A DNA stretch of 64,000 nucleotides from an uncultured Acidobacteriota bacterium (GTDB lineage Bacteria; Acidobacteriota; UBA6911). Below, one piece after another: positions 16,024 through 38,782 of the stretch. The position numbers and the translations under genes are program-made. Location: positions 192,001-256,000 of the forward strand of contig CAWEJX010000008.1 of assembly GCA_963809485.1 (NCBI GenBank), in the 5' to 3' direction. Each line of letters starts with the position of its first letter. Within the stretch, counting starts at the first letter, position 1. The notes beneath the pieces were generated by a model. It did not search any database and was not told where the DNA came from. It worked only from the letters and a program-made list of their open reading frames with translations.

Positions 16024-16090
16024 ATTCAGTTCCTCTTTTCAATTCCTCGGTCTTCACTGTTTGTCGCGCTTGATTTTGCCTTGTGTGGCT

Positions 16091-16121
16091 GACGGCGCCC
16101 TCCGGCTTAGAGGGCGCCGTC
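16091..16121 (-). terminator. GC-rich stem-loop downstream of the DszB-like gene
   Basis: gacggcgccctc-cggctta-gagggcgccgtc, a perfect 12-bp stem without a clear U-tract. Confidence 0.5.
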
Positions 16122-16215
16122 GGAAATTCCTGCTCTGGATGCCGATGCATAGATTCTTTGCCGCGAAATACCAGGAAGAGCACACTCGCAAGGCTTTAAT
16201 TGCCTTTCCTTCCGG

Positions 16216-17385
16216 CTAGCCAATCCGTTGGCCTGACTTCAGCAGCTCAGTCGCATCGGGAAGCTTTGCCGTGGTGACCTTCTTCCATTGTTGCTCGAGC
16301 AGTTCCTTAGCTGCCTGTTCCAGGAATTCCGGCGCGGCCCACTTCTGCACATCGAAGTCGTGCTTGATGTAGCCGTGGCTCAGCATGAAGTCCTTGCCTA
16401 TCTCAACAGAAACAAGGTTCTGGGGCGACAGGTTGGGAACCATATCGATGTGCTCTATGCCCCTGAAAGTATGGTCGACGTCGAGGTAGAAGGTTTGCTT
16501 ATCAAGGATAGCTGCAGCAGCACGCTTGTGTTCATTGGCCCAGCGCCCTACTTTGATCATACCTTTCATGAATGTTACGGCGAGCTCAGGATGCTTCTCA
16601 GCCATCACGTCGGAGCAGGTGATGGCGGCAGGGATGTTGGCCACCTGCAGCGTCCAGTCGGGATACCTCGACAGGTCTTCGATAGCCTTGAACTTGCCGG
16701 TTGCTTCAGAAAGCTGCTGCAGCGGGCCGGTCTGCATATACATCGCATCTATGACGCCCTTCTCCAGCGCCGTCTCCAGCGGACGGAAAGCCAGGTCGTG
16801 CTTGTGGTCACGCCTCAGCCACAATTCTGACGGATTTTCCATGAGCGGACCCATCATTTCGGGCTTATCGTACCAGTCGTCGGGGTAGGGGAATTCCACG
16901 ATTTTTACATCCTTGCGGGTCATGCCGTTCAGCCTCAGCATCAGCTCTATGCCCTGTTCCTCCTGAATGCCCCACCAGTCGGTCTTGATGTTATTCTGGC
17001 TTCTTGAAAGCCCGATCTTCTTGCCTTTCAGATCGGCCATCCGGTAGATATCGTCCCTGGAGCGAACCAGCATGACGCCGCCTTCGCGCGGTGCATGTGT
17101 TACACCCAATAATCGTGTCCTGCGTATATCCGCCTGAACATGAATGGGTGGGAAAAGACCGCCAAAGCGGATGAGGTTGTCGAGGTTGTGAACGTAGTGC
17201 GGGTACCAGTCGTTCTCGGCACGGCAGCGGAGATAAAGGTAATTTACACCCATCTTCTTATACTCTTCCTTGGTCCAACCCAGTTCCTGGTCGACATTGC
17301 TGGCGGACACGAGGGGACAATTGGTGTAGTAGACCTCTTTCCAGTTCAACGGAACCGTGCTGAGTTTTTTAGCTTCCTTAGTCAT
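16216..17385 (-). CDS. DszB-like (aryl-sulfinate desulfinase / SsuA-fold) cytoplasmic protein
   Basis: YYTNCP (Cys27 equivalent), HYVH..IRFGGLFPP (His60/Arg70 region), RTRLLGVT, DLKGKKIG. No signal peptide. Confidence 0.75.
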   Translation of the reverse strand: MTKEAKKLSTVPLNWKEVYYTNCPLVSASNVDQELGWTKEEYKKMGVNYLYLRCRAENDWYPHYVHNLDNLIRFGGLFPPIHVQADIRRTRLLGVTHAPREGGVMLVRSRDDIYRMADLKGKKIGLSRSQNNIKTDWWGIQEEQGIELMLRLNGMTRKDVKIVEFPYPDDWYDKPEMMGPLMENPSELWLRRDHKHDLAFRPLETALEKGVIDAMYMQTGPLQQLSEATGKFKAIEDLSRYPDWTLQVANIPAAITCSDVMAEKHPELAVTFMKGMIKVGRWANEHKRAAAAILDKQTFYLDVDHTFRGIEHIDMVPNLSPQNLVSVEIGKDFMLSHGYIKHDFDVQKWAAPEFLEQAAKELLEQQWKKVTTAKLPDATELLKSGQRIG

Positions 17386-17507
17386 GACTGTGTTCCTTTC
17401 GTTTTTTACGCATTCCGCGGACAGCGGTAATGGCAAGTTGTTTTAAACCAGGCCCGGCTTTGTGCCTGGATTGTTGAGTTGTCTCTGATTCCTATCTTGT
17501 CTCTGTG

Positions 17508-17900
17508 TCATTGTTTTTTTGCGCCGGATATGGTTTCGGAGATGGCGGACAGCAGGACATCGCGATCCACTGGTTTCCTCAGACATACGGAGGCTCCAAG
17601 CGCAAGCACCCGCTCGGCCGTGCCGGGTTCGTCATGAGCGGTGATGACGACGACCGGCACGGGCATCTGTTGGAAGCGGAAATCCCCCAGCAAATCAAAG
17701 CCATTGAGATCCGGCATGTGCAGGTCCAGCAACAGGCAATCCGGCGCATGTAAGCCCAGTGCAGCGAGGAACTCCTCACCGCCCGCATACTCCTCGACAC
17801 GGAAGCCGCAGCAGGAAAGCAATCGTCGAAGCGCCTTCCGCATTTCCGGCTCGTTGTCCAGCACGGCAATCACTGGTTGTGTCATTTGCGTCTTTGGCAT
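17508..17900 (-). CDS. Single-domain response regulator receiver
   Basis: VLDNE..LLLDLHMP..VITAHD..RKP. Confidence 0.9.
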   Translation of the reverse strand: MPKTQMTQPVIAVLDNEPEMRKALRRLLSCCGFRVEEYAGGEEFLAALGLHAPDCLLLDLHMPDLNGFDLLGDFRFQQMPVPVVVITAHDEPGTAERVLALGASVCLRKPVDRDVLLSAISETISGAKKQ

Positions 17901-18668: not shown

Positions 18669-21633
18669 TCACCCCGTATGGATGCCCGCTCCCACGGCAG
18701 GACGATCGGCCCGTCGGCGCGCGCACGACGGGCAGAGCTCGCGGTCTAGAAGAGCCGCCATATGATCCGGCAGGCGCAGCCGGACGAAATCCCGGTGTGC
18801 AGGAGTCTGGGTCGGCGCTCCACATTCGCTGCAAACCAGCAGCGGCTGTTCGCGCACAACGGTTCCCGTGATAATCGTGCGCCGCACTCCATCCCGATCC
18901 TCAATTCGGATCGCGCCCGTCGGGCAGACCTGCGTGCAGGCGCCGCAGCCGATGCATAGCTCCGCAGGCCGCGTGAAGTCGAAGTAGGCAAGCCGGCCGG
19001 CCGGCGTGTCGGCCATGCGCAGCGCCTCGACCCCCATCTCGCTGCAGGCGGCCATACACAGGCCGCAGCCGATGCACAGGTCGCAGCGCAGGCAGCGGCG
19101 GGCCTCGTCATGAGCCATCGCGTCGGTCAGGCCCTCCTCGATCCGGACGTAGTTGCCCTCGCCGAGAACTTCTTCGACACTCCTCTCGGGCATCGCGGCA
19201 CGGCGCAGGCTGTGTGCGATGGCCGGCCGCGATGTCCAGGGGCGACACCTCGGCGCGGCGCACCGGCTTGCCGGTGGCGGCGTCCATAACCGACCCGCGC
19301 AGCCAGGCGTCGATGGAAGCCGCGGCGATCTTTCCGGAGCGGATAGCCTCAACGGCCGTCCGCGGGCCGTGCTCCACGTCGCCGCCGGCGAAGACGCCCG
19401 GGACCTTTGTCATCAGGGTCTTCCGGTCCGTGACAAGGAAGCCGCGGTTGGTCTCGACCCCGCTGCCTTCAACGATCGTCAAGTCCGTGCCCTGGCCGAC
19501 GGCGAGGAGCACGTGATCGGCCTCGAGCGTCAGCAGGCGTCTGGAGTCGAACTTCGGGTCGAAGCGGCCGCTCGCGTCCTTGACCTGCTCGCAGAGCTGG
19601 AAGACGACGGCGCCGTCCTCCCCGACGCTGACCGGGCCCCAGCCGGGATGCAGGTTTACCCCTTGCGCCACGGCGGTCTCTATCTCGCCCGGGCTGGCCG
19701 GCATCTCGCGGCGTTTCTCCAGGCAGACCATGTCCACATGCTTCGCGCCCTCCCGCAATGCCGTCAAGGCGACGTCGATGGCGACGTTGCCGCCGCCGAT
19801 GACCACGGCCCGCGGCCCGACCCGCACGGTTTCGCCGCTGCGCACGGCGCGCAGGAAGTCGATGCCGCCGAGCACGAAGGGTTGATGGACGCCTTCGATC
19901 GGGATGTGGCGTGAGCGCTGAATGCCGAGGCCGAGAAACACCGCGTCGTAGCCCTTGCGGAAAGCCTCGATGCTCTCCACCTTGGAGTTGGTGTGAATTT
20001 GAACTCCCAGCAGCCCGGATCTGGTCGAGTTCCTTCTCGAGCAGATCGGGCGGCATGCGGTACGCCGGGATGCCGTAGCGCAGCATACCGCCGGCCTTCT
20101 CCTGCGCCTCGAAGACTTCGACCTGGTGACCGAGGGTGCGCAGGAAATAGGCCGCCGTGAGACCGGCTGGGCCGGAGCCGATGATGCCGATCCGCTTGCC
20201 CGTATCGGGCGCCAGTTCGGGTTTTGGGTAGCCGTCCTCGGCGAGGCAGTGCTCGGCCGCCTTGGCCTTCATCGGCCGGATGAAGACGGCACCGTCGCTG
20301 CCGCCGCGCACGCAGGCTGATTCGCACGGCGCCGGGCAGACCAGGCCACAGGTCAGCGGCAGCGGATTATCCCGCCTGATGACCTCGATGGTGGAACGAT
20401 AATCCCCATGACCGAGGTGGGCCAGGAAACTCGGGATATCGATGTTAGCCGGACAGGTGCGGTGGCAGGGCGCCGGATTGAGCTCCAGGCAGAGCCCTTC
20501 CGGGCAGGACTCACGCCGGACATGACGTTCCCACTGCTCTCGGTAGTAGCGCAGCGAACTGCCGAGCGGCCAGGCGGCCGCCAGCCCTTGCGTGGCCATC
20601 TCGAGCGCCACGCCGTCGAGTGCGGCCAGGTGGGACTGCTTCACCTCGGCCGAGGGTGATCTCGGCCACGAGACGCGCGCCGCGCGCCAGCAAACCGCGC
20701 ACCGGCGCCTCTTCGCCTTCGGCCAGCTGCCAGTGGCGATAGAGTGCGCGCCGGGTCTGTTTGACGACGCACACGCCCTCGGCCATCACCATAAGGCTGG
20801 ATGGCACAGGGACGATGCCCATGGATGCAAATGAGTGTGGCTCGCATGAAACGTTCGTCCTGGAGAACGGCAGGAAGCCACCCAGACCGTCGTCGAAAAC
20901 GAGCACGGCGTCCTGGCCTTCCACTTCGACGCCGCCCCCCCAGTTGCTCGATCTGGCTTCGCAGATTCCCGGAACGCCCAAGCTCGACCAGGCCGCGCTG
21001 CTTCATGCCGCGCCGGAGCGTCAGCAGCGACCCATCGAGGTCCGCCGCGCCAGCGAACAAAAGGGCAATCCGGCACCAGGTTTCCGGCGTGTGGATCAGC
21101 CGTGACCGGTCGGCGGCATTTGCTTCCGCCCAGCAACTGCGCCGGCAATTGCGCTGTACCTCCACCTGCATACGGGGAGTGGTGATTTGGGCGAGCGAAC
21201 GGATGGCATCGACCGTATTTAGGAAGGCGGCTTCCCGGCCGGTCAGCTCCGCCGGCAGAAGCAGCTCGACCTTGCGGCTGTCGCGCAGCCCGGCAGCGAT
21301 CAGGACGCCCTCGGCCAGCTGCCAGGGAGCTCCATCGAGAACGGCGGCCGTGCCGCGTTCCTGCGCGTCGAAAGTGGTCGCGTCGATCACCAGCACCGAC
21401 GGCCCGTGGCCGCGCAGGAATTGCCGCCAGGCAATATGGATCGGTTCACCCGCGGCGCCACATTCGGCCATGCCGGATTCCCGCAGTCGCTGCAACCGCT
21501 GCAGGGGCGCCAACGCCCGGGCCAGGGCCAAACCGGGCAGAGCGCTGTCAAGAGTCGGCGCCGGCGGGACGTCACCCGCAAGGGCAGCCCCCCCCGCATC
21601 GAGCCAGGCCGGCAGCATCTGGAGTTCGCTCAT
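18669..21633 (-). CDS. Fusion of degenerate NuoF/HydB-like region, GltD/NfnB-like FAD-NAD(P)H oxidoreductase and C-terminal ferredoxin domains (frameshifted)
   Basis: APCHRTCPANIDIP, NPLPLTCGLVCPAPCESAC, IIGSGPAGL, GGMLRYGIPAYR, VIGGGNVAID, EARRCLRCDLCIGCGLCMAAC, CIGCGACTQVCP. The N-terminus aligns by eye to NuoF. Confidence 0.8.
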
Positions 21634-22157
21634 GCCCCCTCCTTAGCGACACCCGGAGGCTCGGCGATGAGATAACGGGCGTAACGCTCGCGACGCGGGT
21701 CCGGCGCGTCGGTGGCGAGACCAAAGGATAGGCAACCGGTCACGCACTTGGTGACGCAGGCCGGCTGGAGCCCGCCATCGAGCCGATCCATGCAATAGTC
21801 GCACTTGATCACTTTTTGGGTTGCCGGATTCCACTGGGGCGTGCCCCAGGGGCACGCAGCCATGCAGCTCTTGCAGCCGACACACACACTGGACTGGACG
21901 AAGACGATGCTGTCCTTCTCGCGCCGCTGCATGGCGCCGGTCGGGCAGGCTTTCATGCACCACGCCTCCTCGCAGTGGAAGCAGGGCATGAAGACGAAAC
22001 GCATGCGCGGATGCCCGTCGACATTAAGCGGGCCGAAGGTGACGATTTTGCACGGGGCCGGGCCGGCGCCGAGATCCTTGTTGGACTTGCAGTGAACCTC
22101 GCAAGCCTGGCAGGCGATGCAGTTGGCCTCATCGTGGCGCAGGATGTAATTGCTCAT
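21630..22157 (-). CDS. 4Fe-4S dicluster electron-transfer subunit (DmsB/PhsB-like)
   Basis: CIACQACEVHC, CFHCEEAWCMKACP, CVGCKSCMAACPW, KCDYC..PACVTKC. Confidence 0.92.
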   Translation of the reverse strand: MSNYILRHDEANCIACQACEVHCKSNKDLGAGPAPCKIVTFGPLNVDGHPRMRFVFMPCFHCEEAWCMKACPTGAMQRREKDSIVFVQSSVCVGCKSCMAACPWGTPQWNPATQKVIKCDYCMDRLDGGLQPACVTKCVTGCLSFGLATDAPDPRRERYARYLIAEPPGVAKEGA

Positions 22158-24310
22158 TGTTGCCCTCCCCCCGTCTGCGCGGGCTTGATTCGGACGATGG
22201 TCTCGGTCAGGGCACAACCGCCGCCGGCCGGGTCGAATTCGTAGAGCTTGCCGTGCTGAAGGCGCTGGTCGGCGACACCGACGCCGTGGGCGCGTGTGGC
22301 GAGCGGCACGGTGGCGCCATAGCCGTGAAGCATGAAGACCGCCTCGGGATGGATCCACGGCGTCACCCTGGCCTTGATGCGGCCGGAATAGCTTCCGCCG
22401 CCGTTGATCTCCACCTCATCGCCGTCGGCTATGCCGAGCGGCCTGGCACGGTCGGGGTGAACCCACAGTTCCTGTTTCGGCGCGATCTCATTCAGGATCG
22501 GATTGTTGAGGGACTGGCCGTGCGCCAGCGTCGCCGGGCGTCCGAACAGCAGGTGGAAGCGGTCGCCTGTCGGCGCCGCTTTTGGCTCGTAGGGCGGCAG
22601 GCTGGGCAACCCGGCCTTCTTCAGCACCTCGCTCTCGATCTCGATCTTGCCGGAGGGCGTTGGGAATCTGAGCTTCTCGCGCGGCGTCAGCGTCGCCGCG
22701 TCGGCCAGGCTGACGATCCCCGCCTCGCGCATCTCGGCGACCGTGACGCCGGTGCCCTCGAGCTGGTAGTTCCAGAGCTCCTCGATCGTTTCAAAGTCCA
22801 GGGCCTGCTTGATGCCCATGCGGCGCAGGATCTCGCGGAAGATCCACCAGGCCGGGCGGCTGTCGAAGCGCGGCGCGATTGCCTGGTCGCGCATGGCAAA
22901 GACCGGAATCGGGCCGTTCATCTGGCACAGGATGTTGGCGCGCTCAAGGTAGGACGACTCGGGGAGTATGACGTCAGAGAACCAGCCGGTCTCCGAGTAG
23001 CGGACGTCGATGGAGACGAGCAGCTTCAGTTTGTCCAGCGCACGTTGCATTGCCTCCGGATCGGGCATGCTGGTGAGCGGATCGTGGCGGTAGGCGAAGT
23101 AGGCGCCGATCCCGTACGGCTGCGCCGTCTCCATGGCGGCGAACAGTTGATGCAGCATGCCGATGGCCGGATCCCACTGCGGTCTGTCGGTGCCGGCGCC
23201 GTCCACCCGCGGTTCCCCAACCTTGGGCACACGGCCGGTCAGCGGCTTCAAGCCCTTGCGGCCGTAGTATTCCGGTGACTTCCCCAGCGCGCAACCGCCC
23301 GGGATTTCGATGTTGCCCATCAGCGCATTCAGGATCAGCGCCGTGCGGCTGACATAGAATGACTGCTTGTGTCGCGCCGTCATCCAGCCCGGATGGAAGA
23401 TCACGTGCGGCGCGTCGGCGGCGATCTCCTTGACGAAAGCGCGAATCTGCCCGGCGGGAAGGCCGGTGTGGCTCTCCTGCCATTCCGGCGTCGTGTCTCT
23501 GACTGCCTTACGCAGGTAGTCCATGCCGGAAACGAAGCCGGCGACGAAGTCTTTGTCATAGGCTTCCTGCTTCAGGACTTCGTGGATGATGGCAAGGTTC
23601 AGCGCATAATCGCTGTTCGGGCGCACTTGCCAGTAACGGGTGGCCTTGCATGCGGTGATGCTGGCGCGCGGATCGATGTAGGTGCAGCGCATCCCGTTTG
23701 CCATCGCACCCATGAACGCCTTGGCCTCCTTCACCATGAGCGATTCGACGATGTTGCGGCCATAAAGCACGAGGTGTTTTGTGTTCTTCAGATCGAGGAT
23801 TAGTCCGGCGTGGCTGAAACCGTAGATCGTGCGCGCGGCGTTGTGGACGTTGCCGCCGCAGGTGGCGTCGTGGTTGAAGTAGTTCGGAGAGCCGAGCGCC
23901 TGCACAAAGGTCCGGGTCAGGTCGGTGAAGAAGCCGCCGCGATCGGAAAGCGCGATGCCGCGCCCGCCGAAGGAGTCGATTGTCTCGTGCAGCTTGTCGG
24001 CGACGTAATCCAGGGCCTCGTCCCAGGACGCCCGCCGCCAACGGCCTCCGCCACGCGGGCCCATGCGGATCAGCGGCGTCTGCGGCCGCTGGTCGTCGCC
24101 GTACTGGAACGACAGGCCGGCCGAACCCTTCGCGCACAGGCTGGCGCCGATCGCCTGGTCGTGCGGATTTCCCTGCAGCCAGACAACCCGGCCGTCCTCA
24201 ACCGTCACCTCGATGGGGCAGCGCACCGCGCACATGCCGCACATGCTGTAGACCGTTCGCCGGCCCGGGACGCCCACGCCGCGCACGTTTGGTGCCATGA
24301 CAGAACTCAT
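22154..24310 (-). CDS. Molybdopterin oxidoreductase catalytic subunit (DMSO-reductase family, PhsA/PsrA-like), no Tat signal
   Basis: CGMCAVRC..CAKG FS0 cluster, SWDEALD, HDATC putative Cys ligand, SDVILPESSYLER, VHPDRA..GIADGD. Confidence 0.9.
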   Translation of the reverse strand: MSSVMAPNVRGVGVPGRRTVYSMCGMCAVRCPIEVTVEDGRVVWLQGNPHDQAIGASLCAKGSAGLSFQYGDDQRPQTPLIRMGPRGGGRWRRASWDEALDYVADKLHETIDSFGGRGIALSDRGGFFTDLTRTFVQALGSPNYFNHDATCGGNVHNAARTIYGFSHAGLILDLKNTKHLVLYGRNIVESLMVKEAKAFMGAMANGMRCTYIDPRASITACKATRYWQVRPNSDYALNLAIIHEVLKQEAYDKDFVAGFVSGMDYLRKAVRDTTPEWQESHTGLPAGQIRAFVKEIAADAPHVIFHPGWMTARHKQSFYVSRTALILNALMGNIEIPGGCALGKSPEYYGRKGLKPLTGRVPKVGEPRVDGAGTDRPQWDPAIGMLHQLFAAMETAQPYGIGAYFAYRHDPLTSMPDPEAMQRALDKLKLLVSIDVRYSETGWFSDVILPESSYLERANILCQMNGPIPVFAMRDQAIAPRFDSRPAWWIFREILRRMGIKQALDFETIEELWNYQLEGTGVTVAEMREAGIVSLADAATLTPREKLRFPTPSGKIEIESEVLKKAGLPSLPPYEPKAAPTGDRFHLLFGRPATLAHGQSLNNPILNEIAPKQELWVHPDRARPLGIADGDEVEINGGGSYSGRIKARVTPWIHPEAVFMLHGYGATVPLATRAHGVGVADQRLQHGKLYEFDPAGGGCALTETIVRIKPAQTGGGQQ

Positions 24311-24347: not shown

Positions 24348-25398
24348 TTACACCTCGGAAAACTGAATGACGACCTTGATATCATCGGGCTCTCGCGCCA
24401 ACGCCTGCTCGAAATTCTCCGGTTTTTCACGCCGTGTAATGAGGCCCTTCAGCCACGTTCGATCCGCGTGGGCCAGGGCTTCACCGGCCTTGTACCAGTG
24501 CCGCTTGTTGGCATTCACACTGCCGACCAGCACCAGGTTTCTCAGGACTATTGCTGCCGAGGCGTCTGCTACGGACATTCGGCTGGTAATACCGCCGCTT
24601 CCAACCCCCGTGAGGCAGAGGACCCCGCCCGCTCTGAGCTTCTGCATCGAATCGCCGATCACCGCTCCGACACCGGTACACTCGATGATGACTTCCGGCT
24701 CGAATCCGAGATCAGTAGCCCTCCCGGAGTGATACGTCGCACCGAGCGCTCTTCACCAGATCCGGCTTGGGACCCGAAGTGACGCGGTCCAGCACGTGGA
24801 CGTCCAATCCGCGCTGCACACCCAGGAGGGCGGCGAGAAGGCCGATCGGCCCGGCACCGGTCACCAGCACGCTCCGCGGTTCCCAGAACGAGCGCTGGCC
24901 AACCGCCATCACCATCTCCCAGGCTTTGGTCACGACTGTCGTCGGCTCGAGCAGCACGCCCAGGATTCCCAGTGTGGAATCCACTTTGATCGTGTATTCG
25001 GGCTCAATCCGCCATCGCTCCGACATGTACCCGTCAATCTGTTTGATGCCGCGTTCGGTATACTGACCGTTGTGGCACATGTCCCACTCCCCCACCGCAC
25101 AGCTGGAACACGGAACCGGGTCAGGGCGGCGAACGATGCCGACGACGAGATCGCCCGGCCTCAAACCCTTGACCGGACCCGGGTCGATCACTCGGCCGAG
25201 AGATTCGTGCCCCAACACGAGCCGTGATTTGCCCTCGGGCGCCCAGCCGTATTTGCCTTCGACAATTTCGACGTCGGTTCCACACACCCCGACGGCGATA
25301 GCCTCCACGAGCACCGAGCCGTTCTGCGGATCCGGTTCCGGGATATCTTCCCACCGTGCGGTTCCCGGTTTCTTTGGTTCTACAGTGATGGCTTTCAT
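24348..25398 (-). CDS. Zn-dependent glucose 1-dehydrogenase (MDR family), one frameshift
   Basis: [52 protein letters not shown]. Confidence 0.88.
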
Positions 25399-25658
25399 TT
25401 GAGTTCCTCCTTCGGTTGACTCAGTAAAGCGACGAATAGAGAGGTGTCGTCATCGGATATGCCCGCCAGCCCATCTTCGCCCCAGCGATATGCCCGCGAG
25501 CGGGCGTGGTCATGCGTGAAGTAATTCCAGGCATCTCCGCTTTCGCTGTAGTCTTCGCGTACGGTTCCCCATTGCCGCTCGCTCAGGTAGGGCCCCCATT
25601 TTTTCCAGGGAGCTAGTTTCGTCCGGGCTTCTTCAAGTCTTGTCGCTTCAGCGTTCAT
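25395..25658 (-). pseudogene. N-terminal fragment of an MGH1/GH63-like glucosidase
   Basis: [43 protein letters not shown], then an abrupt end. Full-length family members are far longer. Confidence 0.85.
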
Positions 25659-25719: not shown

Positions 25720-26864
25720 CTACTTCGTTGATGCCCGATTCTGCAGACGCATCTCTTCCCATTCCACCATGCTGGAAGGAACGTGGAACCATTCTTCTTC
25801 CGATACGGGCACCATCACGATCGCCTCGGTTGCGCATCCAATCACGCACACGCCGCAACCGATGCACTTGGCTCGTTCTACCTTCGCCTTGCCATTCTCA
25901 TCCTCAGCGATGGCGTCCACCGGGCAACGCTCGATGCAGGCGCCGCAGGCAATGCACTCTTCCGGATCGATGACGGCGCGGTAGTTCGATCTCTGCGGCC
26001 CTTCCGCCAGACCGGCGAGCTGTCTTGGCCGTGTAAATATCCCACAGCAGCAGGCGCAGCAGTTGCACGTGCCGACGAACTGAGGCGTCTCCGCGCACAT
26101 GGTGAAGCCATAGAACGCGAGGTGGACGTGCCCCATCTGCTCGAGCTTACCAAGGAGCTTCGACGCCTCCTCCCGGCCAATGACGGTTTCGCCGAGCGGG
26201 GTCTGAGGCGGCAGCCCGACGAATCCGCAACGCTTCATGGGCAGATTGCAGCTGTAGTCCGTGCAGTAACTCCCTCTCCCTTTTGCACACGCAGGGAATC
26301 ACGAGAAAACGCTCGTGCCGTTTGAAGTGGGCGTCGATGTCAAGGTGGGGTTCGCGCTGCGATATACTCGGGCTTGAGTGATCCTCGCACCGGAACGACG
26401 CCCAGCAACCCGGGCCGCGGGCGAAAGGATCCGCTCGCCGCCGCCCTCGATCACGTATTGCTCGAAGAGCTCGGCGAACTCCTTGTCCAGCAGCCGCATG
26501 TTGGCTTCATACCAGCCGACCATGAACGGGCCCAGCCGGTACCTCTTCTCGCCTTCGACCTCAGGCTTCAGACCGGGTGCCGCCATGCCGGGAGAGTCGA
26601 GGCGAACCAGACGCCGCGGTATCAGGCTCTCGAGCGTCGCCGTGACCTCGCCGACATCGCGGCCCACCCGTTTCGCAATCTCGGCACGCGGTTTCGGGAA
26701 AGCGGGTCAATTGGCCGGCCAGCCAGACCTCCTCTGGTGTGAACGACTTCTTGATAAGGTTTATTTCCACCCCGGAGGGCGTCCGGGGAAAGCCATGCGG
26801 GAGCGCCTCCAGCGCAGCCGCCAGTCGTTCGTAAATGTCTTCTGGATTTGTCAGAATTGCTCAT
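25720..26864 (-). CDS. 4Fe-4S binding protein with Cys-rich CNCCxCCC motif and C-terminal 2x[4Fe-4S] ferredoxin (frameshifted)
   Basis: [41 protein letters not shown] across several frames; GGAG RBS before 26864. Confidence 0.8.
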
Positions 26865-27034: not shown

Positions 27035-28012
27035 TCATTTCAAACCCGGGGCTGTTTGGCCACCGCGGCCAAAAGCTTCGTCGATGATGGATTGCAGGTA
27101 CTGGACCAGTTCATCGGACGGTGTTTTATAATCGTCCAGTTCGTACACAACACCCAGGTGTTCGTACTTGCCCAGGCCAAAGCGGTGATACGGTAACAGC
27201 TCATAATCAATCACGTTCTTGTGCGGGCGAATGAACGCCAGGACCGCCCGGATGTGCTCTTCGTCGGCATTGATGCCGGGAATCAGCGGCGTGCGCGCGA
27301 TAAAGTCGATGTCCGGGAACGTCTCGTACGCTCGCTTGAAGTTCGCCAGGATCCGCTCGTTGCTCACACCGGTCCACTTCTTGTGCCGCTCCGGGATCGA
27401 GAGCTTATGATCGTGAAGCATCGTATCCACATGAGGCAATACCTTTTCCACGAAAGCCCAGGGCACATTGCACGCCGTTTCGATGGCTGTATTGAAGCCG
27501 CGCTCGTGGGCTTCCTCGAGCAGCGCGGCGCTGAAATCCGGCTGCAGCAAGCACTCGCCGCCGCTCAGGGTAATGCCGCCGCCGGTCGAGCGATAGAAGG
27601 AGGCGTCCTTTTCCACCTCGTCCAGCACCTCGTTTAAGGTCATCTTCTTGCCGTACATGGAGAGCGCTTTCGGCGGGCAGAGAGAAACTAACGCCTCGTC
27701 GCAGTCGCCGGCCAGGTCCCAGTTGACGCGGACCTTGTCATCGTCGGCGCCCTCCACTACGAAGAACGCCCCTTCCGGGAAGGGAGGCTTGAGGCACACG
27801 CCGCATGCCTTCTTTCCGGTGCACAACTTGGGGTCGTAGGCCAATTCCGATTTGAAGCGGATGCTTTCGGGATTGCCGCACCATTTGCAGCGCAGCGAGC
27901 AGCCTTTGAGGAAAACCGTTGTACGGATGCCAGGACCGTCGTGGCTGCAATAGCGCTGGATATTCAAAACGATTCCGCTTGGGGCGGATGTGTCGGCTGA
28001 CTGGTTCTTCAT
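27035..28012 (-). CDS. Glycyl-radical enzyme activating enzyme (radical SAM)
   Basis: HDGPGIRTTVFLKGCSLRCKWCGNPES, GGITLSGGE, IET, RTPLIPGIN, LLPYHRFG..KY. Confidence 0.95.
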   Translation of the reverse strand: MKNQSADTSAPSGIVLNIQRYCSHDGPGIRTTVFLKGCSLRCKWCGNPESIRFKSELAYDPKLCTGKKACGVCLKPPFPEGAFFVVEGADDDKVRVNWDLAGDCDEALVSLCPPKALSMYGKKMTLNEVLDEVEKDASFYRSTGGGITLSGGECLLQPDFSAALLEEAHERGFNTAIETACNVPWAFVEKVLPHVDTMLHDHKLSIPERHKKWTGVSNERILANFKRAYETFPDIDFIARTPLIPGINADEEHIRAVLAFIRPHKNVIDYELLPYHRFGLGKYEHLGVVYELDDYKTPSDELVQYLQSIIDEAFGRGGQTAPGLK

Positions 28013-29184
28013 AGTTCCCTCCCCAGGCAAATGCCAAGTGACCGCGCGATCTGCATGAATTCGCTGTTCGCGGGCACAGTTCTGACTTTGTTGATCGCTT
28101 CCGCCAGCGGCACGAAGGTGATGTCCGGCGGGACGAATGCCATCATCACGCCATATTTGCCGGCTTGAATTGCACGTATGGCGCCGGCCCCGTAACCCAA
28201 TCCCAGTTGACGATCAACCGCAGAGGGGGTGCCGCCCCGAACCCAGGGGCCCAGGACCATTGGAAAAGTCTCCTCGGCGATCAGCAACTGCAGCCTGGTC
28301 GCCACAGACTCGGCTGCCTGACCGGATTTCTGGATGACAAATTCACTCGCATCACCGGTTGCCAGCGGAGACAGAGATGCTTTGAACGTGGATTCTTTTG
28401 CCTGTGGTTGCGGACCGTCCGTAAATCTTGCTCCTTCGGCCACCACCACCAGCCCGTAAGGCCGCCGGGGGCTAACCTTGTCCTTCAACCTCGCAGCTAT
28501 CACCCGCAGATCGCAGGGGATCTCCGGGATCAGGACCGCATCGGCACACACGGCGATGCCGGCCTGAAGAGCCAGCCAGCCGGCCTGCGCGCCCAGGACC
28601 TCGACCACGCCAATCTTCCGGGCTGACTGGGCAGCCTGGCGGGCCTTGTCGAGCATTTCAATGGTGAAGCTGAGGGCGCTGTTGAACCCGAAGGAGACCG
28701 CGGTGGCGGCGATGTCGTTCTCGATCGTGCGGGGGATACAGACAGCATTGAGCCCTTTGCGGTGGAGTCTATGGAAAATGCTCATCCCCCGGCCGCCAAC
28801 AACCGCAATCAGGCCATCAATTCGTTCCGCCTGTAGTCTTTTCAGAAGTTCATCGGACATGTCCACTTCCTCGACCATGCCGTCTTCATTCACCGTGCGC
28901 ACATGAAACGGGTCCACCCGGGCCGATTGGCCGAGGATCCCCCCGGCGGCCGGATCCAGGTTCTCGGCCAACTGGGGACTGAGTGGCACCAACCCGCCAT
29001 CGGGGTATCGATCGGGGTGAAGCAACCCGTCAAACCCATCCCGGATGCCGAGTATCTCCCATCCCAGTCTTCCTGCCGCCAGAGCCGCACCCTTGACCAC
29101 GGAATTCATCCCTGGAACGTAGCCGGCCCCTACCACAATGGCAATGCGTCTAAGAAAACCGGCATGACCTACTTCAATACTCAT
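28009..29184 (-). CDS. 6-phosphofructokinase (PfkA)-fold protein with divergent active site
   Basis: PGMNSVV, GIRDGFDGL, GGILG, IPRTIENDI, SFGFNSA, LIPEIP, VVAEGA, RGGTPSAVDR. Several canonical catalytic residues are replaced. Confidence 0.88.
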   Translation of the reverse strand: MSIEVGHAGFLRRIAIVVGAGYVPGMNSVVKGAALAAGRLGWEILGIRDGFDGLLHPDRYPDGGLVPLSPQLAENLDPAAGGILGQSARVDPFHVRTVNEDGMVEEVDMSDELLKRLQAERIDGLIAVVGGRGMSIFHRLHRKGLNAVCIPRTIENDIAATAVSFGFNSALSFTIEMLDKARQAAQSARKIGVVEVLGAQAGWLALQAGIAVCADAVLIPEIPCDLRVIAARLKDKVSPRRPYGLVVVAEGARFTDGPQPQAKESTFKASLSPLATGDASEFVIQKSGQAAESVATRLQLLIAEETFPMVLGPWVRGGTPSAVDRQLGLGYGAGAIRAIQAGKYGVMMAFVPPDITFVPLAEAINKVRTVPANSEFMQIARSLGICLGREL

Positions 29185-29267
29185 GACGTACCTCCTCTAT
29201 TAAAGCGTCGCGTGTCAGACTTCATAGCGTTCCATCTTCCTGCCTCGTGATGCGGGCAAGGAGCGGC

Positions 29268-29300
29268 CGGTGCGGCGTGGCGGAGCGCCACGCGCACCGG
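29268..29300 (-). terminator. Stem-loop right after the GRE gene (partial terminator or mRNA stabiliser)
   Basis: ccggtgcg-g-cgtggcg-gag-cgccacg-cgcaccgg hairpin. Confidence 0.55.
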
Positions 29301-29318
29301 CGCCACCTTTCCTCAGCA

Positions 29319-31733
29319 CTAGCCGAAACTCTGCTCCGTGCGTGCGATGATTTCGTTCTGAACGCCAGGATGCAGCCTTGTGAAGAAAGCGCTGAAACCG
29401 GCTACCCGAACCACGAGGTCAGGGTACTTTTCCGGGTGTTTCTGCGCGTCCCTCAGGATGTTGGTGTCCAGCACATTGAACTGAATGTGATAGCCGTCGT
29501 GGTCCATGTAGGTCTTGACGAGGTTCAGGACATTCTCCCGGCCCTTGCGGGTTTTGAGCTGATTGGGGGGGAGCTTCAAGTTCATGTGCGTCGCGGTGAA
29601 CTTGATCGCGTCCGCACCCTTCGCTGCGGACATGACCAGCGCGGTCGGCCCGGTGACGTCGGTTCCGGGCATGGCCGACAGGCTGCCATCGGTGAGCGCC
29701 ACGCCGGCCTTTTTGCCGGTGGGCAGGGCCCCGGTCATCAGACCCATCAGGTTGTGGATGCTCTTAGTGTAGGAGTCAGGCGCCGATCTGATGTCCCGGC
29801 TGATGTAATTGCCGCCCCCCTCCACGTTCTGGAAGGCTTGGAAGATGGTCTCGTACACCCGGTGGACGAGCTTGTTGACCTCGGGGATGTCGTTTCCATG
29901 CTTGGGCGCTTCGAAGCACATCTTCCCGACGCGCTCGTATTCCCCCTCGAAGTTGGCCGCCAGGGCCTTCTTGAGCTCGGCCATGGTCAACTTCTTCGTG
30001 TCGTACACGAGGTGCTTCACCGCCATAAGCCCGTTGGCGGCGTCGACGCCGCCAACCGTGATCTGGGCGACCGTGTAGTAGTTGGCTCCACCGTTCCAGA
30101 CCTCGGTGCCGGTTTCGATGCAGCCCCCGGTGAGGATGGAGCGCCAAGTGACCGGCAGATACTCGGCACACAGAATGCTCGCGATCCACGCCTCGCGGCG
30201 GAGCGTGTCCTCGCAGAACTGGAGCTGCTTCTCGAAGGCCGCGTACAGCTCCTCGAAGTCCTTGAAGGACTCTGGATCGCCGGTCTTAGGTCCGATCTGC
30301 TGCTTGGTGCGAGGGTCAAACCCGTTGTTCAGGGTGAGCTCGAGGACCTTCCCCAGGTTGGGCTGCCCCTCCACGGGATGCCCCGTCTCGTAAGGGATGT
30401 AGCTTCCCACGCACGCCCCGATGCAGGTCCGTCGTGCCTTCTCGAGGGTGAGCCCCTTTTTGCTGTTCGCGAAGAGGTTCAAGGCTCGCTTGATCATCAC
30501 GTCGCCGTTGACGAACTGCGGCATGCCGACCCCGGTATCGATGACGTCGAGGACCTTTTCGAGGAACTTGCCGCTCATCTTCTCGGTGTAGCAGCAGGAC
30601 AGCGGCGGCTGGGGCAGCTTCAGGTACTTGGCGGCATCGAGGATCAGGTAGTCCATCTCCGCCGTGGCGTCGTCTCCATCCTCGGTGAAGCCTCCGAGGG
30701 TGATGCTCTGGCCGAGGTCCGCGGAGTTCTGGATCTTGACATACTCACCGTAGTAATAACCGATCTCGTTCAGCTTGATGAACAGGTGCTTCAGCAGGGT
30801 GGTGGCTTCCTCCGGACCGATCCGGCCGGCCGCCTTGTCACTCTGATAGAACGGCTCGAGGTTCTGGCCCAGGTAGGCCTCCGAGTAGCCGCATCCGACC
30901 TGCTCGATCTCCGCGCAGATGTGGCACAGGAAGTGGCACTGAAGGGCCTCCCGCAGCGTCCGGGCAGGATGCTCGGGCACGTGTTCGCAGACCTCGGCGA
31001 TGTCGAGCAGCTCCTGCTTCCGCTCGCCGTTCTTTTCCTTCGCCGCCATCTCCCGGGCCAGCTCGGCGTACCGGTTGGCCAGTCGGATGATGGCCCTCAT
31101 CGTGATCAGACAGGCCTCGTAGAAGTAGAACTTGGAAGCATTCGGCAGCCGCATGTCGAGGGCCTTCTGCCGCTCCTCGACTTCCTTGATCATGCTGGCC
31201 AGGCCTTCTCTGTAGACGCGGGGGTAGTTCAGGTTGCCTCCGCCGCCCGGCCACGACATGAACTCGGCGATGAGGCCGGACTTGTAGACCGGGTCCGGAT
31301 CGAAGCCGTACTTCTTGATGAAGATCTCATCGGCCCGCGGCCGCAGCGCCCACTTGTCCCAGTACTCGAGCGCCCACTGGTTCGCCTTCCGGTCCTCCGG
31401 GGTCTTCGAGTTCTCGACCGTCTTCTCCTGCTTCATCCACTCCACGTTCCATTCCGGATACGTGTAGACTGCATTGACGCTGCTCGCCATGCTGCCCACG
31501 ATGAGGTTGTCATCGATGTACAGCTTCTTCCTCTCAATCAACTGTTCGAAGAACTTTGCCCGGCGGATGATTTGCTGATAGCCGGCTGTGCCCTCGTAGA
31601 CCTCCGCCATGATGCGGACCCGCTCGTTGTCGATCTCCTGGGGCGTGTTTATGAGCTGAGCCTTCAGCCGATCGATCCGCGCGTCATCGGCTTTAATCTT
31701 ACCGGTGGATTGCTTGCTGGTTTCCGTTTTCAT
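29319..31733 (-). CDS. Glycyl-radical enzyme (PFL superfamily) of unknown specificity
   Basis: 804 aa from ATG 31733 with GGAGA RBS. Gly loop HIQFNV..DAQKHPEKYPDLVVRVAGFSAFF..QNEIIART; Cys loop TCIGACVGS; PARTLREALQ; GMPQFVN. Confidence 0.95.
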   Translation of the reverse strand: MKTETSKQSTGKIKADDARIDRLKAQLINTPQEIDNERVRIMAEVYEGTAGYQQIIRRAKFFEQLIERKKLYIDDNLIVGSMASSVNAVYTYPEWNVEWMKQEKTVENSKTPEDRKANQWALEYWDKWALRPRADEIFIKKYGFDPDPVYKSGLIAEFMSWPGGGGNLNYPRVYREGLASMIKEVEERQKALDMRLPNASKFYFYEACLITMRAIIRLANRYAELAREMAAKEKNGERKQELLDIAEVCEHVPEHPARTLREALQCHFLCHICAEIEQVGCGYSEAYLGQNLEPFYQSDKAAGRIGPEEATTLLKHLFIKLNEIGYYYGEYVKIQNSADLGQSITLGGFTEDGDDATAEMDYLILDAAKYLKLPQPPLSCCYTEKMSGKFLEKVLDVIDTGVGMPQFVNGDVMIKRALNLFANSKKGLTLEKARRTCIGACVGSYIPYETGHPVEGQPNLGKVLELTLNNGFDPRTKQQIGPKTGDPESFKDFEELYAAFEKQLQFCEDTLRREAWIASILCAEYLPVTWRSILTGGCIETGTEVWNGGANYYTVAQITVGGVDAANGLMAVKHLVYDTKKLTMAELKKALAANFEGEYERVGKMCFEAPKHGNDIPEVNKLVHRVYETIFQAFQNVEGGGNYISRDIRSAPDSYTKSIHNLMGLMTGALPTGKKAGVALTDGSLSAMPGTDVTGPTALVMSAAKGADAIKFTATHMNLKLPPNQLKTRKGRENVLNLVKTYMDHDGYHIQFNVLDTNILRDAQKHPEKYPDLVVRVAGFSAFFTRLHPGVQNEIIARTEQSFG

Positions 31734-31904
31734 TGTGTTGTCTCCTATCGCTGAATTTTGAAGTAGCTTGTTTGGGTATTGTTGCTCATTATGTGACCGG
31801 CGATGATGGCTGTTTCCCATTGAATGCAGGACCGGCCTCCTGCATAAACTGCGCCGAGGTTTATTGAAACCGCTTGCCAACGATTCGATCCTCTGTTACG
31901 AAAT

Positions 31905-34297: not shown

Positions 34298-35786
34298 CTA
34301 AAAACCTCCGCCCAAAGCCTTGTAAAGCTGGGTCACAGCCACGACCTGGGCTAACCTGATGCGCGCCTCGCCGAGTTGAGCGCTATAAAGCTCCCGCTGA
34401 GAGTCGAGCACGGGGAGGAAGCTCGACAAGCCGCTGCGGAAACGAGACTCCGCAACCTGGCTGGCCCGGCGGAAGGCGGCCACATAGGCCTCCTGCTGAA
34501 GGAGCGATTCCCGCGCCTTACGGTGGGCCACCAGCGAATCCTCCACCTCCCGGAATGCCTGCTGGATCACCTGCTCGTACTGGATCAGCGACTGTTGCCG
34601 CAGCGCCTCAGCCGCCTTCACGGACGATTTGATCGCCCCGCCTGCGAAGAGGGGCTGGGCAATCTTGAGGGGAAATTGGTAAAAACCGCTTCCGCCGGTG
34701 AACAGGCCTGACAATTGCGAACTCTCCGTTCCCAGCGGCCCGGTCAGGCTGATCGCGGGGAAATAGGCCGCCTTAGCCACGCCGATCTGCGCATTGCTCG
34801 CAACCAGGATCTGTTCTGCTGAGCGGATATCGGGGCGCCGCTCGATCAATGACGAGGGCAAACCCGCCGGCACATCGGGCGGCACGGTGAAATCCTTCAG
34901 CTCGAAGCCGCGCCCGATGGGGCCGGGATACTGTCCGACCAGGATGCTGAGCGCGTTTTCGGTCTGGGAAATCGCGCGCTCGAGATCGGGAAGCGCGGCG
35001 GCGGTCGCAGCTACTGCGCCTTCGGCCTGCCGCAGATCCAGCTCGTTGGTAAGACCATTGCCATAGAGCACTCCCACGATCCGGGCCGTCTCCTGCCGGG
35101 TGGCGAGCGTGTTTCGGGTGATCTGCAGTTCGAGATCGAGTTCGCGCAGCTGGAGATAGGTCTGCGCAACGCTGCTCACCAGCGATATCGCGACCGCCTG
35201 GCGCACCTCTTCCGTCGCAAGCAATTCGCGCCCGAGCCGCCTCGGTCGCCCGGCGGTATTTGCCCCATAGATCTATCTCCCAGGCAAAGGTGAACCCGAC
35301 CCGGTACAACTGGGTCCTGCGGTCTTCTCCTTCCGGGACCGGACGGCCGCCGGTCTCGCTGCCGAGAGTGCCCGTGGCGCTGGCAGCCGCGCCGACCTGC
35401 GGATATCGGCCCGCGCCCACGATGCCCAATTGCGCGCGGGCCGCGTCAACTCGCGCGACAGCCAGCCTCAGGTCTTTGTTCTGATCAAGCGCAAGGCGAA
35501 TCAGTACTTGCAGTTGCGGGTCCTTGAAGAGGTCCCACCATTTCATGTCAACCAGCGGCGCCTGGTCTTTCGCAATCGTCGCCGCGCGGTAATCGGCGGG
35601 GATTTCCACCTTGGGACGCTTATAGTTGGGTCCGACCAAACAGCCGTTTTGCACAAGCATCAGAACCAGAAACGCTGCGCACAGTCTCTTTCCATCGATC
35701 CGTGCAATTACGCCCTCTAAACATGCCCCGACACGCTTCTTTGCCCCATAGTTCATCGCTGCGATCATTGGTGGTGTTGTTTGCAT
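34298..35786 (-). CDS. NodT/OprM-type outer-membrane efflux lipoprotein, frameshift near 35225
   Basis: GCLVGPNYKRP lipobox, WWDLFKDPQL, WEIDLWGK, RRPDIRSAE, LYKALGGG. Confidence 0.9.
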
Positions 35787-36184: not shown

Positions 36185-36988
36185 TCATTTAATAAACAAC
36201 ATCTCGGACAGGAAATCGCGGGTCAGAAGGGCTGCGTCCTGCGGCCGATCCAGGAATGGACGGACATCGGCCGCGACGGCCTTCATATCGAGCGATGCCA
36301 ATTTGTCTTCCACCAGCTGCCGCCATTCGTGGGCTTTGCATTTGCCGGCCCCATAAGTTTGGTTCAAGGCTTTCTGAAGCAATTTCACGTTCACCTCGAT
36401 TGGCGGACGCTGCGTCAGGTACCACATGAGATCGTACCAGTCTCGCCCCTTGGCGTATTTTCGGGTGATGACTGCATGGATCTTACCGGCCAGCATGGAC
36501 GGCAGGTCGTAATATTGCAGCAGGAAGGTCACATTGCGCGTGATAATCCGTCGTTCGCAATGCGCCCCCGCCGGCGGACGCGTATCGATTTCCAATTTGA
36601 TGGCCAGCTTTTGCTCCGGCATTGCGGATAGCCCGGCCTCGTAAAGGAGGCCGGCCAGCCGGATCCACCCTGTATGGACGGCCTTGCGGTCATTCCAGGT
36701 TACCAGCGGATCGAATCCTGCCAGCGACATATCGCGCTTCACCTTCGCCATCCATTCCATTCCCGAGTAGCCTTTTGCTGAAACCATCGAGAAATCCAGA
36801 TCTTCTGAAAACCGTGGCAGGCCGTGCAGGAAACGCAAAGCCGTGCCTCCGACAAATGCCAAAGGTCGAAAGGCTTCGCACTCATGTAACGATCTCAATG
36901 CAAGCGTTTGCAGATACTCCCTCAAGAGGTTGAGAGCCTGTCCGGGGTCCCTGGCCGTGCGTGCTAATGCCAGCGCCTGCTCCTTCAT
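36185..36988 (-). CDS. abiEii: AbiEii-family nucleotidyltransferase toxin (type IV toxin-antitoxin)
   Basis: FVGGTAL..LPRFSEDLDFS, IKLEID, GKIHA..KGRDWYDL. Confidence 0.9.
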   Translation of the reverse strand: MKEQALALARTARDPGQALNLLREYLQTLALRSLHECEAFRPLAFVGGTALRFLHGLPRFSEDLDFSMVSAKGYSGMEWMAKVKRDMSLAGFDPLVTWNDRKAVHTGWIRLAGLLYEAGLSAMPEQKLAIKLEIDTRPPAGAHCERRIITRNVTFLLQYYDLPSMLAGKIHAVITRKYAKGRDWYDLMWYLTQRPPIEVNVKLLQKALNQTYGAGKCKAHEWRQLVEDKLASLDMKAVAADVRPFLDRPQDAALLTRDFLSEMLFIK

Positions 36989-37626
36989 ACTGTTACCGTT
37001 CCCTTCTCCTCTTCGGCTGCTAATAGGATCCATCGCTCAACCGTCCGGCAAAGGCGGGGACTTTGAAAACGGTCTGCGTAAGCTCTGAGTTTGTCTTCGC
37101 ATACCTGTTGACAATTCTGGTATCGCATTTCCTCAAGACGCTCTTGAGTCCACTCTCCAGGAGTGAGATGCCAGTGATCCAATAATGCCTTTTCCGGTTC
37201 CGCCACCAGAACCTCCTTCCCGCTATATTGAACCGTTACGTATCCGAAAAAAACCTTCTGTTTAATGCTGCGGTAATCGAAAGTCCCGAACGGATTTTCA
37301 AAACGTCGCGGGACGCGCGGCGTCGCACTCGTCAACCACACCACACGCTCAGGAATCAGGTCATAGTAACCCAGAGCCCACAAGCCGCTCAGGTATGACG
37401 GGCGATACAGCTGATTTGCCAGCCTCGCCGGAACAAGCGATGCCCGGCGATAGGTGTCGGACAGCGTGTATATTCCGCGCCGTAAGCCGATGACCTTGCC
37501 ATCCTTCATCCAGCGGGACAGTTGCACCCGGATTCCCTCGCGTGGTCCCTTAAATCCCTGAACCAGCAACGGCAAATCGAAGCATTCCATCGCTCCCACG
37601 AGTTCCACAAGCGCTTCGTATTTCAT
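36985..37626 (-). CDS. abiEi: AbiEi-family antitoxin/transcriptional regulator
   Basis: QLSRW..LRRGIY..PSYLS..ALGYYDLIPE, AEPEKALLD; 4-bp overlap with the toxin. Confidence 0.88.
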   Translation of the reverse strand: MKYEALVELVGAMECFDLPLLVQGFKGPREGIRVQLSRWMKDGKVIGLRRGIYTLSDTYRRASLVPARLANQLYRPSYLSGLWALGYYDLIPERVVWLTSATPRVPRRFENPFGTFDYRSIKQKVFFGYVTVQYSGKEVLVAEPEKALLDHWHLTPGEWTQERLEEMRYQNCQQVCEDKLRAYADRFQSPRLCRTVERWILLAAEEEKGTVTV

Positions 37627-38164: not shown

Positions 38165-38782
38165 CTATTTTCCGATGCCGAGTCGCTCGGCAACGCGCAC
38201 AAGATCCGCGAGCGAGTCGACTCCCATCTTCCTCATGATCTGAGCGCGGTGCAGCTTGATATTCTGTTCTCCGGTTCCGAGGTCGAAAGCAATTTGCTTA
38301 TTGAGTTGCCCGGCGACGACATGCTTCATGACTTCGCGCTGCCGTGGCGTGAGGCTGGCCAGTCTGGCCGCCAATGCCGCGGTTTCAGCGGCCGCCTGAC
38401 GCCGGGTCTCGGCCATCTGCAGGGCTGCGCGCACAGCCTGGACCAGTGCGGCCGCGTCGACCGGCTTGGTCAGAAACTCCGTCGCGCCGGCCTTGATCGC
38501 GCGCACGCTCATGGGAATGTCACCGTGACCGGTGAGAAATATGATGGGTATGAGAATGCCCTGGTGTGTGAGACGCCGCTGCAACTCCAATCCGTCCAAC
38601 TCCGGCATCGACACGTCCAGCACAAGACAAGCGTTGTTCCCCGGGCGGCACGTTTCCAGGAATGCGCTCACGGATGTAAAACCAAGCGTCTCGAATCGCC
38701 TCGCCCGCAGCAAGCGCATAAGCGCCTTGACCATTTCAGGCTCGTCGTCGAGAACATATACCACACCGTCTGGAGTGCTCAT
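38165..38782 (-). CDS. FixJ/NodW/TodT-family response regulator (REC + LuxR HTH)
   Basis: VLDDE, LDVSMP, FLTGHGDIPMSVRAIKAGA, LTPRQREV..NKQIA..HRAQIMRKM. Confidence 0.93.
   Translation of the reverse strand: MSTPDGVVYVLDDEPEMVKALMRLLRARRFETLGFTSVSAFLETCRPGNNACLVLDVSMPELDGLELQRRLTHQGILIPIIFLTGHGDIPMSVRAIKAGATEFLTKPVDAAALVQAVRAALQMAETRRQAAAETAALAARLASLTPRQREVMKHVVAGQLNKQIAFDLGTGEQNIKLHRAQIMRKMGVDSLADLVRVAERLGIGK

Follow-up and report, generated by a model that had tools for sequence, protein, structure and literature searches.

What is the role of a phosphofructokinase (PFK) homologue that is encoded between a glycyl radical enzyme (GRE) and its activase and lacks the residues of a kinase? This question is raised by a 64,000 nt stretch of DNA (the window) from an uncultured Acidobacteriota bacterium of the UBA6911 lineage (contig CAWEJX010000008.1, positions 192,001 to 256,000, of assembly GCA_963809485.1). 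The gene, here called PFKL (PFK-fold protein without kinase motifs), occupies positions 28009..29184 of the window. Correcting its strand, the open reading frame (ORF) lies on the minus strand, where it runs uninterrupted from an ATG at 29184 to 28009, encodes 391 aa and has a GGAGG ribosome-binding site 7 nt ahead of the ATG. A preliminary description, made from the sequence alone, had proposed either a pseudo-kinase that acts as a sensor or scaffold in GRE activation or a kinase for a non-phosphorylated or sulfonated substrate. Because the kinase residues are lost, the protein is strongly conserved and its gene is placed before that of the activase, PFKL is most likely a helper of the radical-enzyme system, not a glycolytic enzyme.

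A phosphofructokinase fold without kinase motifs

PFKL matches Pfam family PF00365 over its entire length (208 bits, profile positions 1-277 of 277), and bacterial PFKs were the top Foldseek matches of its AF2 model (TM 0.86-0.88, normalised to the target). Searching the ESM Atlas with PFKL returned PFK-named clusters only. The NCBIfam models of PFK, on the other hand, all scored far short of their cut-offs, the best being TIGR02483 (245 vs 430.55), with further scores of 221 vs 253 for NF002872 and 212 vs 544 for NF010674.

The motifs were read from HMMER alignments to the solved PFKs 1zxx and 4i4i. The N-terminal sGGDaPGMN has become gAGYvPGMN, GGDGS has become GGRGM, P-G-TIDND has become P-R-TIEND (including Gly124 to Arg and Asp127 to Glu), vMGR has become vLGA and etRvtvLGHvqRGG has become etFpmvLGPwvRGG. 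These alignments reproduce every substitution that had been listed against E. coli PfkA in the preliminary description. PFKL positions are numbered as in E. coli PfkA, and these numbers are partly backed by papers. In PFKs, the aspartate of the GGDG loop serves the binding of Mg-ATP. Asp127 is the general base and Arg162 contacts fructose 6-phosphate (F6P) according to the accessible part of PMC12203962, and the accessible part of a preprint assigns the coordination of the F6P phosphate to R162 and H249 and the binding of fructose to R243 (bioRxiv 10.64898/2026.02.05.704047). The window copy retains the equivalents of R72, D129, R162, E222 and R252. Compared with an active PfkA, PFKL thus has the fold, but not Asp127, the GGD and GGDG aspartates, the full set of F6P ligands or a score above an NCBIfam cut-off. 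It contains four cysteines, of which only C149 is invariant among its relatives.

The altered motifs are conserved throughout a clade

A word-indexed search yielded 4923 relatives. The 120 of them that were listed are 77-94% identical to PFKL and mostly 391-394 aa long, and those database sources that give a name call these genes 6-phosphofructokinase, an annotation that would mislead metabolic reconstructions of anaerobes from soil, peat and sediment. Scanning one genome per species gave 136 relatives, from which 80 loci with 64-83% identity were kept. They stem from metagenome-assembled genomes labelled as more than 10 phyla, the labels including Acidobacteriota, Bacteroidota, Verrucomicrobiota, Chloroflexia, delta-, beta-, gamma- and alphaproteobacteria, Nitrospiraceae, Actinomycetota, Gemmatimonadota, Ignavibacteria and others. 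All 80 fetched loci share the noncanonical motif changes, which settles the question, raised by the preliminary description, whether the substitutions are clade-wide.

Single positions were counted in 73 copies paired with an activase gene, i.e., the window copy and those from 72 of the 80 loci; the remaining 8 loci were dropped because the ORF called there was fused or shorter than 340 aa. The Asp of GGD is replaced by an aromatic residue in nearly all copies (Y 50, F 21, H 2). Position 103 is never Asp and holds R in 36, Q in 21, K in 12 and another residue in 4 copies. Similarly, position 171 is E in 40, A in 13, R in 3 and something else in 17 copies, and position 222 is E in 52 and Q in 21. 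Arg124, Trp250 and Arg252 each occur in 73 of the 73 copies, R162 is retained in 71, position 127 is E in 67 and D in 6, position 243 is F in 39, Y in 30 and another residue in 4, and position 249 is P in 66, H in 1 and another residue in 6. The former catalytic positions 103, 171 and 222 are therefore unconstrained, whereas other positions of the cleft are fixed in a new state.

Altogether, 152 of the 391 PFKL columns are conserved to at least 95%. The median dN/dS is 0.127 for PFKL (79 pairs with dS <1.5) vs 0.110 for the activase (68 pairs), and PFKL is under purifying selection. The earlier impression of a full-length, uninterrupted ORF that is selected and not decayed is borne out by the intact 391 aa together with this ratio.

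An exhaustive search of 1.84 billion representatives returned 7354 hits; 76 full-length sequences among the best 150 were aligned. All nine representatives with at least 43% identity were noncanonical, and nearly all of those with 40% identity or less carried the canonical motifs of mixed-substrate PFKs. The closest homologues are thus noncanonical, contrary to the possibility considered in the preliminary description that they carry canonical motifs and that the changes are private to this gene. Mixed-substrate PFKs (the TIGR02483 group within PF00365) are the nearest sequence relatives of PFKL and share its fold and length class. At 40% identity or less they bear GGGD[AC]PGLN, GDG[ST], PKTIDND, MGR and LGHxQRGG, whereas PFKL is devoid of the GGD and GGDG aspartates, Asp127, Arg171, Arg243 and His249. 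A locus search with the distant representative P0133 alone returned one unrelated locus.

In a FastTree phylogeny of 137 sequences, a stem of 1.08 substitutions per site separated 104 noncanonical sequences from 33 canonical ones. As the node of this split had a support of just 0.375 after re-rooting, our reading rests on the core node, which comprises 98 sequences and had a support of 1.0. In the genome of the window itself, there are five matches to PF00365, and two of them, on contigs C19 and C16, have canonical motifs, so the glycolytic PFK is supplied elsewhere in this genome.

PFKL genes are paired with genes of Fe-S proteins

According to tblastn, a GRE gene lies upstream and an activase gene directly downstream of PFKL on the same strand at 80 of 80 loci. 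The activase of the window (27035..28012, minus strand) is a radical SAM protein with the domains Radical_SAM and Fer4_12 and a TIGR02494 score of 312.7 bits (cut-off 174). It has a CX3CX2C motif and four further invariant cysteines (C64, C70, C73 and C112). Its likely start is the ATG at 28012; read directly from the sequence, the stop codon of PFKL and the start codon of the activase share the four nucleotides ATGA.

As a control, a second, alignment-based scan covered 80 further loci, consisting of 70 PFKs with canonical motifs and 10 noncanonical copies. Neither a GRE nor an activase was found within ~6 kb of any of the 70 canonical PFKs. Of the noncanonical copies, nine adjoin an activase gene and the tenth ends at a contig edge; a GRE gene accompanies eight. 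A constant link of the altered gene to a GRE, which the preliminary description suggested checking, consequently holds for the 80 loci of the first scan and for 8 of the 10 copies in the second, but not for the loci L093 and L094. In these two loci from Verrucomicrobia and Planctomycetales, with PFKL copies of 62-65% identity, the order is SBF transporter, PFKL and activase, with a DUF2254 gene further downstream, and no GRE was present in the 12 kb of DNA fetched. Unlike the activase of the main clade, that of L093 and L094 retains the full two-cluster ferredoxin insert.

About 20 loci contain one or two extra PFKL copies, with 61-73% identity. In 25 of 26 cases such a copy is followed by a gene for a second Fe-S protein, f4, which has a winged helix, a run of cysteines and two [4Fe-4S] motifs within Fer4 domains. 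Foldseek matches of the AF2 model of f4 were limited to its ferredoxin and winged-helix parts. The ferredoxin part resembles the insert of GRE activases and was weakly matched by the models of the HypD and CutC activases. Across loci, f4 is located either after the activase or after a further PFKL copy. In the FastTree phylogeny, the f4-paired copies group together, 22 in number, inside a 23-member clade that is itself nested among the PFKLs paired with an activase, and R162 is replaced by Y, K or F in these paralogues. PFKL is thus never found away from the gene of an Fe-S protein, which distinguishes it from its canonical relatives.

In the window, f4 (25723..26842, minus strand) is broken by frameshifts. 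An intact 382-aa copy from locus L002 aligned by tblastn in frames -1 and -2, indicating at least two frame changes in a gene that is intact and 375-400 aa long at other loci.

We also searched for longer proteins that include PFKL. Among 15 hits, one (P0274, from one contig) was a PFKL-activase fusion, and a 717-aa ORF at locus L010 resembles such a fusion. A single indel at the 4-nt overlap would create a fusion of this kind, and we therefore gave no weight to either.

PFKL shares its history with the activase

Pairwise distances at 26 loci were closely correlated between PFKL and activase (r = 0.84), but not between PFKL and GRE (r = 0.21). The partial correlations were 0.84 for PFKL and activase, given GRE, and -0.03 for PFKL and GRE. 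Hence, PFKL has a history in common with the activase.

The complex of activase and PFKL was predicted by ESMFold2 with custom alignments, alongside three controls. The ipSAE values of the pair were 0.60, 0.64 and 0.43 (median 0.60), vs 0.13 for the best control, with a partner pLDDT of at least 81 and a contact agreement of 63% or higher. When the method was calibrated, 58 out of 80 solved complexes passed the mark, as did 2 out of 110 mismatched pairs; only 7 of the 80 solved complexes, but both passing mismatched pairs, did so with a value of 0.60 or less. The predicted complex therefore lends weak support to an interaction, raising its odds modestly given the synteny.

A proposed pseudo-enzyme partner of the activase

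Considering these results, we propose, with a probability of about 0.55, that PFKL is a non-catalytic, PFK-fold partner of the activase. It would be a pseudo-enzyme that has lost phosphate transfer, is produced together with the activase through translational coupling at the ATGA overlap and acts as its protein partner. PFKL may bind the activase, and its paralogues may bind f4. The remodelled cleft, with an aromatic residue in place of the GGD Asp, R124, E127, an aromatic residue at 243, P249, W250 and R252, could accommodate a small anion as ligand or else part of a partner protein. In the numbering of the window copy, the cleft includes Y22, R152, E155, F307, W314 and R316. In this way, PFKL would support or gate the installation of the glycyl radical on the GRE encoded upstream. 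The pseudo-kinase acting as sensor or scaffold is thus the better supported half of the original proposal: the clade-wide losses, the variable former catalytic positions, the pairing with the activase, also at the two loci without a GRE, and the distances argue for it, and the complex prediction adds weak support.

The closest precedent is the C-terminal half of eukaryotic PFK-1, a duplicated PFK fold that has lost its catalysis. There, the ATP pocket is gone and the former F6P pocket serves as an effector site, as described in the accessible part of PMC12203962, so that a dead PFK fold acts as a ligand-sensing regulatory module. However, the C-terminal half of PFK-1 is fused to the active PFK half that it regulates, whereas PFKL stands as a protein of its own and is linked to a radical SAM activase instead of a kinase.

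Several observations weigh against this proposal. The segments of the former active site are the best conserved parts of PFKL, the replacement of Asp127 by Glu is conservative, with Asp kept in 6 of the 73 copies, and R72, D129, R162 and R252 are mostly retained. Together, these features leave room for a rewired catalytic site. The AF2 monomer is only moderate (pLDDT 71.9) and drops below 50 at residues 154-167, the former catalytic loop. The distance correlation carries no significance test. Moreover, adjacent, overlapping genes are inherited together, and synteny and correlated distances are therefore no proof of contact. The complex score, finally, lies in the weak band.

That PFKL is instead a rewired enzyme appears unlikely to us. 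It would then catalyse a step in the GRE pathway, for instance by transferring a phosphoryl or other group to a substrate or product that is sulfonated or not phosphorylated, with Glu127 as base and Arg124 and Arg252 replacing the Mg-Asp machinery. The high conservation of the cleft motifs, the prevalence of Glu or Asp at position 127 and the invariance of R124 and R252 fit this reading, as does the recurrence of sulfur-handling genes beside the cassette (see below). The preliminary description was also right in that sulfofructose kinases exist in the PFK family: SqiK of the sulfo-EMP2 pathway belongs to PF00365 and acts on a sulfonated sugar, according to the available part of PMC9594981. Compared by description, SqiK resembles PFKL in its PfkA family and its sulfur-related context, but it is an active enzyme encoded with the aldolase SqiA and an isomerase, whereas PFKL lacks the kinase residues and such neighbours. 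In place of the lost GGDG Asp, various residues are found (R, Q, K, A, E, L or V), positions 171 and 222 vary, the f4-paired paralogues have lost R162, and PFKL is paired with genes of Fe-S proteins, not with transport or catabolic genes. No sulfoglycolysis-type aldolase or isomerase was found among the annotated recurrent neighbour families. The kinase half of the original proposal is, consequently, the less supported one.

The gene order would also fit a subunit of the GRE. Like HPAD gamma or BSS beta/gamma, PFKL would then associate with the catalytic subunit and adjust its stability or the transfer of the radical, and its link to the activase would be one of gene order only. The PFKL gene sits between GRE and activase, a GRE gene precedes it at 80 of 80 loci in the first scan and at 8 of 10 in the second, and the hpdB-hpdC-hpdA operon is reported to have the same order as GRE, PFKL and activase. 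A database ORF, P0180, even joins the C-terminus of a GRE to a PFK-like N-terminal half in one frame. Non-catalytic proteins with debated roles are indeed encoded in GRE operons, as PFKL is, namely HPAD gamma, BSS beta/gamma and MASS beta/gamma/delta (PMC13450708, available sections). Those subunits are, however, small HiPIP- or rubredoxin-like metal proteins that bind the GRE, in contrast to PFKL with its 391-aa Rossmann-type kinase fold and its one invariant Cys. PFKL and activase occur together without a GRE in L093 and L094, PFKL follows the activase and not the GRE in its distances, and the paralogues are paired with f4 instead of further GREs; we therefore regard a GRE subunit as quite improbable. 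The idea that PFKL is a glycolytic pfk gene in decay or distorted by sequencing errors, to which the frameshifts in several neighbours in the window (f4, a Zn-dependent alcohol dehydrogenase and an outer-membrane channel) could point, is already refuted by the clade-wide motifs, the synteny and dN/dS: the frame of 391 aa is unbroken, 80 other loci show the same state of the motifs, and canonical PFKs exist elsewhere in the genome.

If PFKL is indeed a partner of the activase, this conserved 391-aa pseudo-kinase would represent a novel type of component for installing the radical, as accessory proteins are either absent from the known GRE systems or are small Fe-S subunits. It would also add a bacterial case in which an inactive glycolytic fold has been taken over for the role of a partner protein. 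Going further, we can imagine, as a rather speculative extension, that PFK-fold pseudo-kinases constitute an undescribed general class of partners for Fe-S proteins with ferredoxin domains, in which a ligand in the cleft gates radical installation. One paralogue would serve the radical SAM activase and others the f4 protein with its winged helix and cysteine run. The cleft might bind a nucleotide or the anionic substrate of the pathway and thereby gate low-potential electron delivery or SAM cleavage, so that the radical would be installed only when substrate or energy is present, i.e., at a ligand-gated checkpoint.

Judged on titles and the beginnings of abstracts, we found no description of a GRE-PFKL-activase module in the literature. 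The accessible text of a 2026 review of GREs (PMC13450708) contains no mention of "phosphofructo" and has "kinase" solely in a reference, and the terms "inactive", "non-catalytic", "radical", "pseudo" and "unknown function" do not occur in the accessible text of a 2025 review of the PFK superfamily (PMC12203962).

The orphan GRE and its possible substrate

The GRE gene of the window (29319..31733, minus strand) encodes a protein with PFL-like and Gly_radical domains. Translation probably begins at the ATG at 31733 and yields 804 aa, and the open frame extends back to a TTG at 31880. The protein scores below every NCBIfam equivalog cut-off, the best model being HypD with 491 vs 1100. Its Cys loop reads GACVGS, vs GCVETG in HypD, and lacks the Glu of the eliminases. 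PFKL offers a direct experimental handle on an orphan GRE that is spread across many phyla and does not have the usual Glu in its Cys loop.

Two assignments do not fit the residues of this GRE. GRE eliminases and isomerases have a C-x-E Cys loop (PMC13450708, section 30), and the C-V-G found in its place speaks against a 1,2-eliminase or isomerase of this type. In the phenylacetate decarboxylase PhdB, Gln484 follows two residues after Cys482 as C-x-Q (section 22 of the same source). In the GRE of the window, Gln is missing from the corresponding place, and Cys and Gly are 338 residues apart, vs 333 in PhdB, as judged by a crude comparison of offsets. PhdB is said to have originated from Acidobacteria-rich sediments.

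Neighbouring genes were counted by our own ORF clustering at the 80 loci and the window region, with part of the families annotated by Pfam and NCBIfam. The recurrent families include a rhodanese-domain CoA-disulfide reductase (37), an SBF transporter (31), an SsuA-like binding protein (29), SulP (17) and rhodanese (16), as well as sigma-54 activators. A few loci had a GH63-like hydrolase with a Zn-dependent alcohol dehydrogenase beside the cassette. The recurrence of sulfur-handling neighbours, to which the window adds a PhsA-like molybdoenzyme (see below), points to an organic sulfur anion as the putative substrate of the GRE.

The genome of the window contains about eight GRE genes, on contigs C8, C12, C20, C7 and C4. 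One is of the PFL type (704 bits), two lie adjacent in a single open frame of 1471 aa on C12, and one on C4 is in three pieces. Only the GRE of the window has a PFK-like partner.

Further features of the window

The spacer between GRE and PFKL (29185..29318, minus strand) forms a GC-rich hairpin of -60.6 kcal/mol (z = -1.76; 11 of 200 shuffles were equally good). It has no T tract and is not called a terminator; it may set unequal levels of the GRE and the genes downstream. The sigma-54 -24/-12 consensus, allowing up to 2 mismatches, had 31 matches in the window, vs 31.5 expected, and none upstream of the GRE, and a scan for sigma-70 promoters and terminators gave nothing exceeding shuffles.

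One sediment metatranscriptome contained 0.07 of the sampled sequence words. From it, 1210 contig pieces with at least 85% likeness spanned 29 of 30 bins, and 59 pieces reached at least 99%. These matches are not counted as proof of transcription, as DNA carry-over is possible and most pieces come from relatives.

Beyond f4, several genes on the minus strand of the window are damaged. The Zn-dependent alcohol dehydrogenase at 24351-25398 has a frameshift near 24750. Immediately upstream of it, the ORF at 25425-25658 comprises the first 78 residues only of a GH63/MGH1-like hydrolase of ~904 aa, which precedes this dehydrogenase elsewhere. A NodT-type outer-membrane efflux channel at 34298-35786 is present in two overlapping ORFs and is apparently frameshifted. 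No obvious homopolymers were seen at the frameshift sites inspected. At least three broken genes beside an intact GRE-PFKL-activase core suggest either an indel-prone assembly or decaying accessory genes.

Following the cassette, the region 19469-24310 (minus strand) encodes a PhsA-like molybdopterin oxidoreductase (500 bits vs a cut-off of 694), a 4Fe-4S subunit, a 330-aa protein without family and a GltD-like Fe-S flavoprotein; this set looks like a thiosulfate or polysulfide reductase. Putative genes for a rhodanese, an SsuA-like binding protein, a response-regulator receiver and a PAS/GAF-domain sigma-54 activator are located at 15508-17900 and 38779-41214 (both minus strand). They were identified by clustering with annotated members from other loci, where these families recur beside the cassette. 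Finally, an AbiEii-type nucleotidyltransferase toxin gene (Pfam, 97.8 bits) lies at 36185-37033 (minus strand), with a 213-aa ORF overlapping its start, and the two probably constitute a type IV toxin-antitoxin pair.

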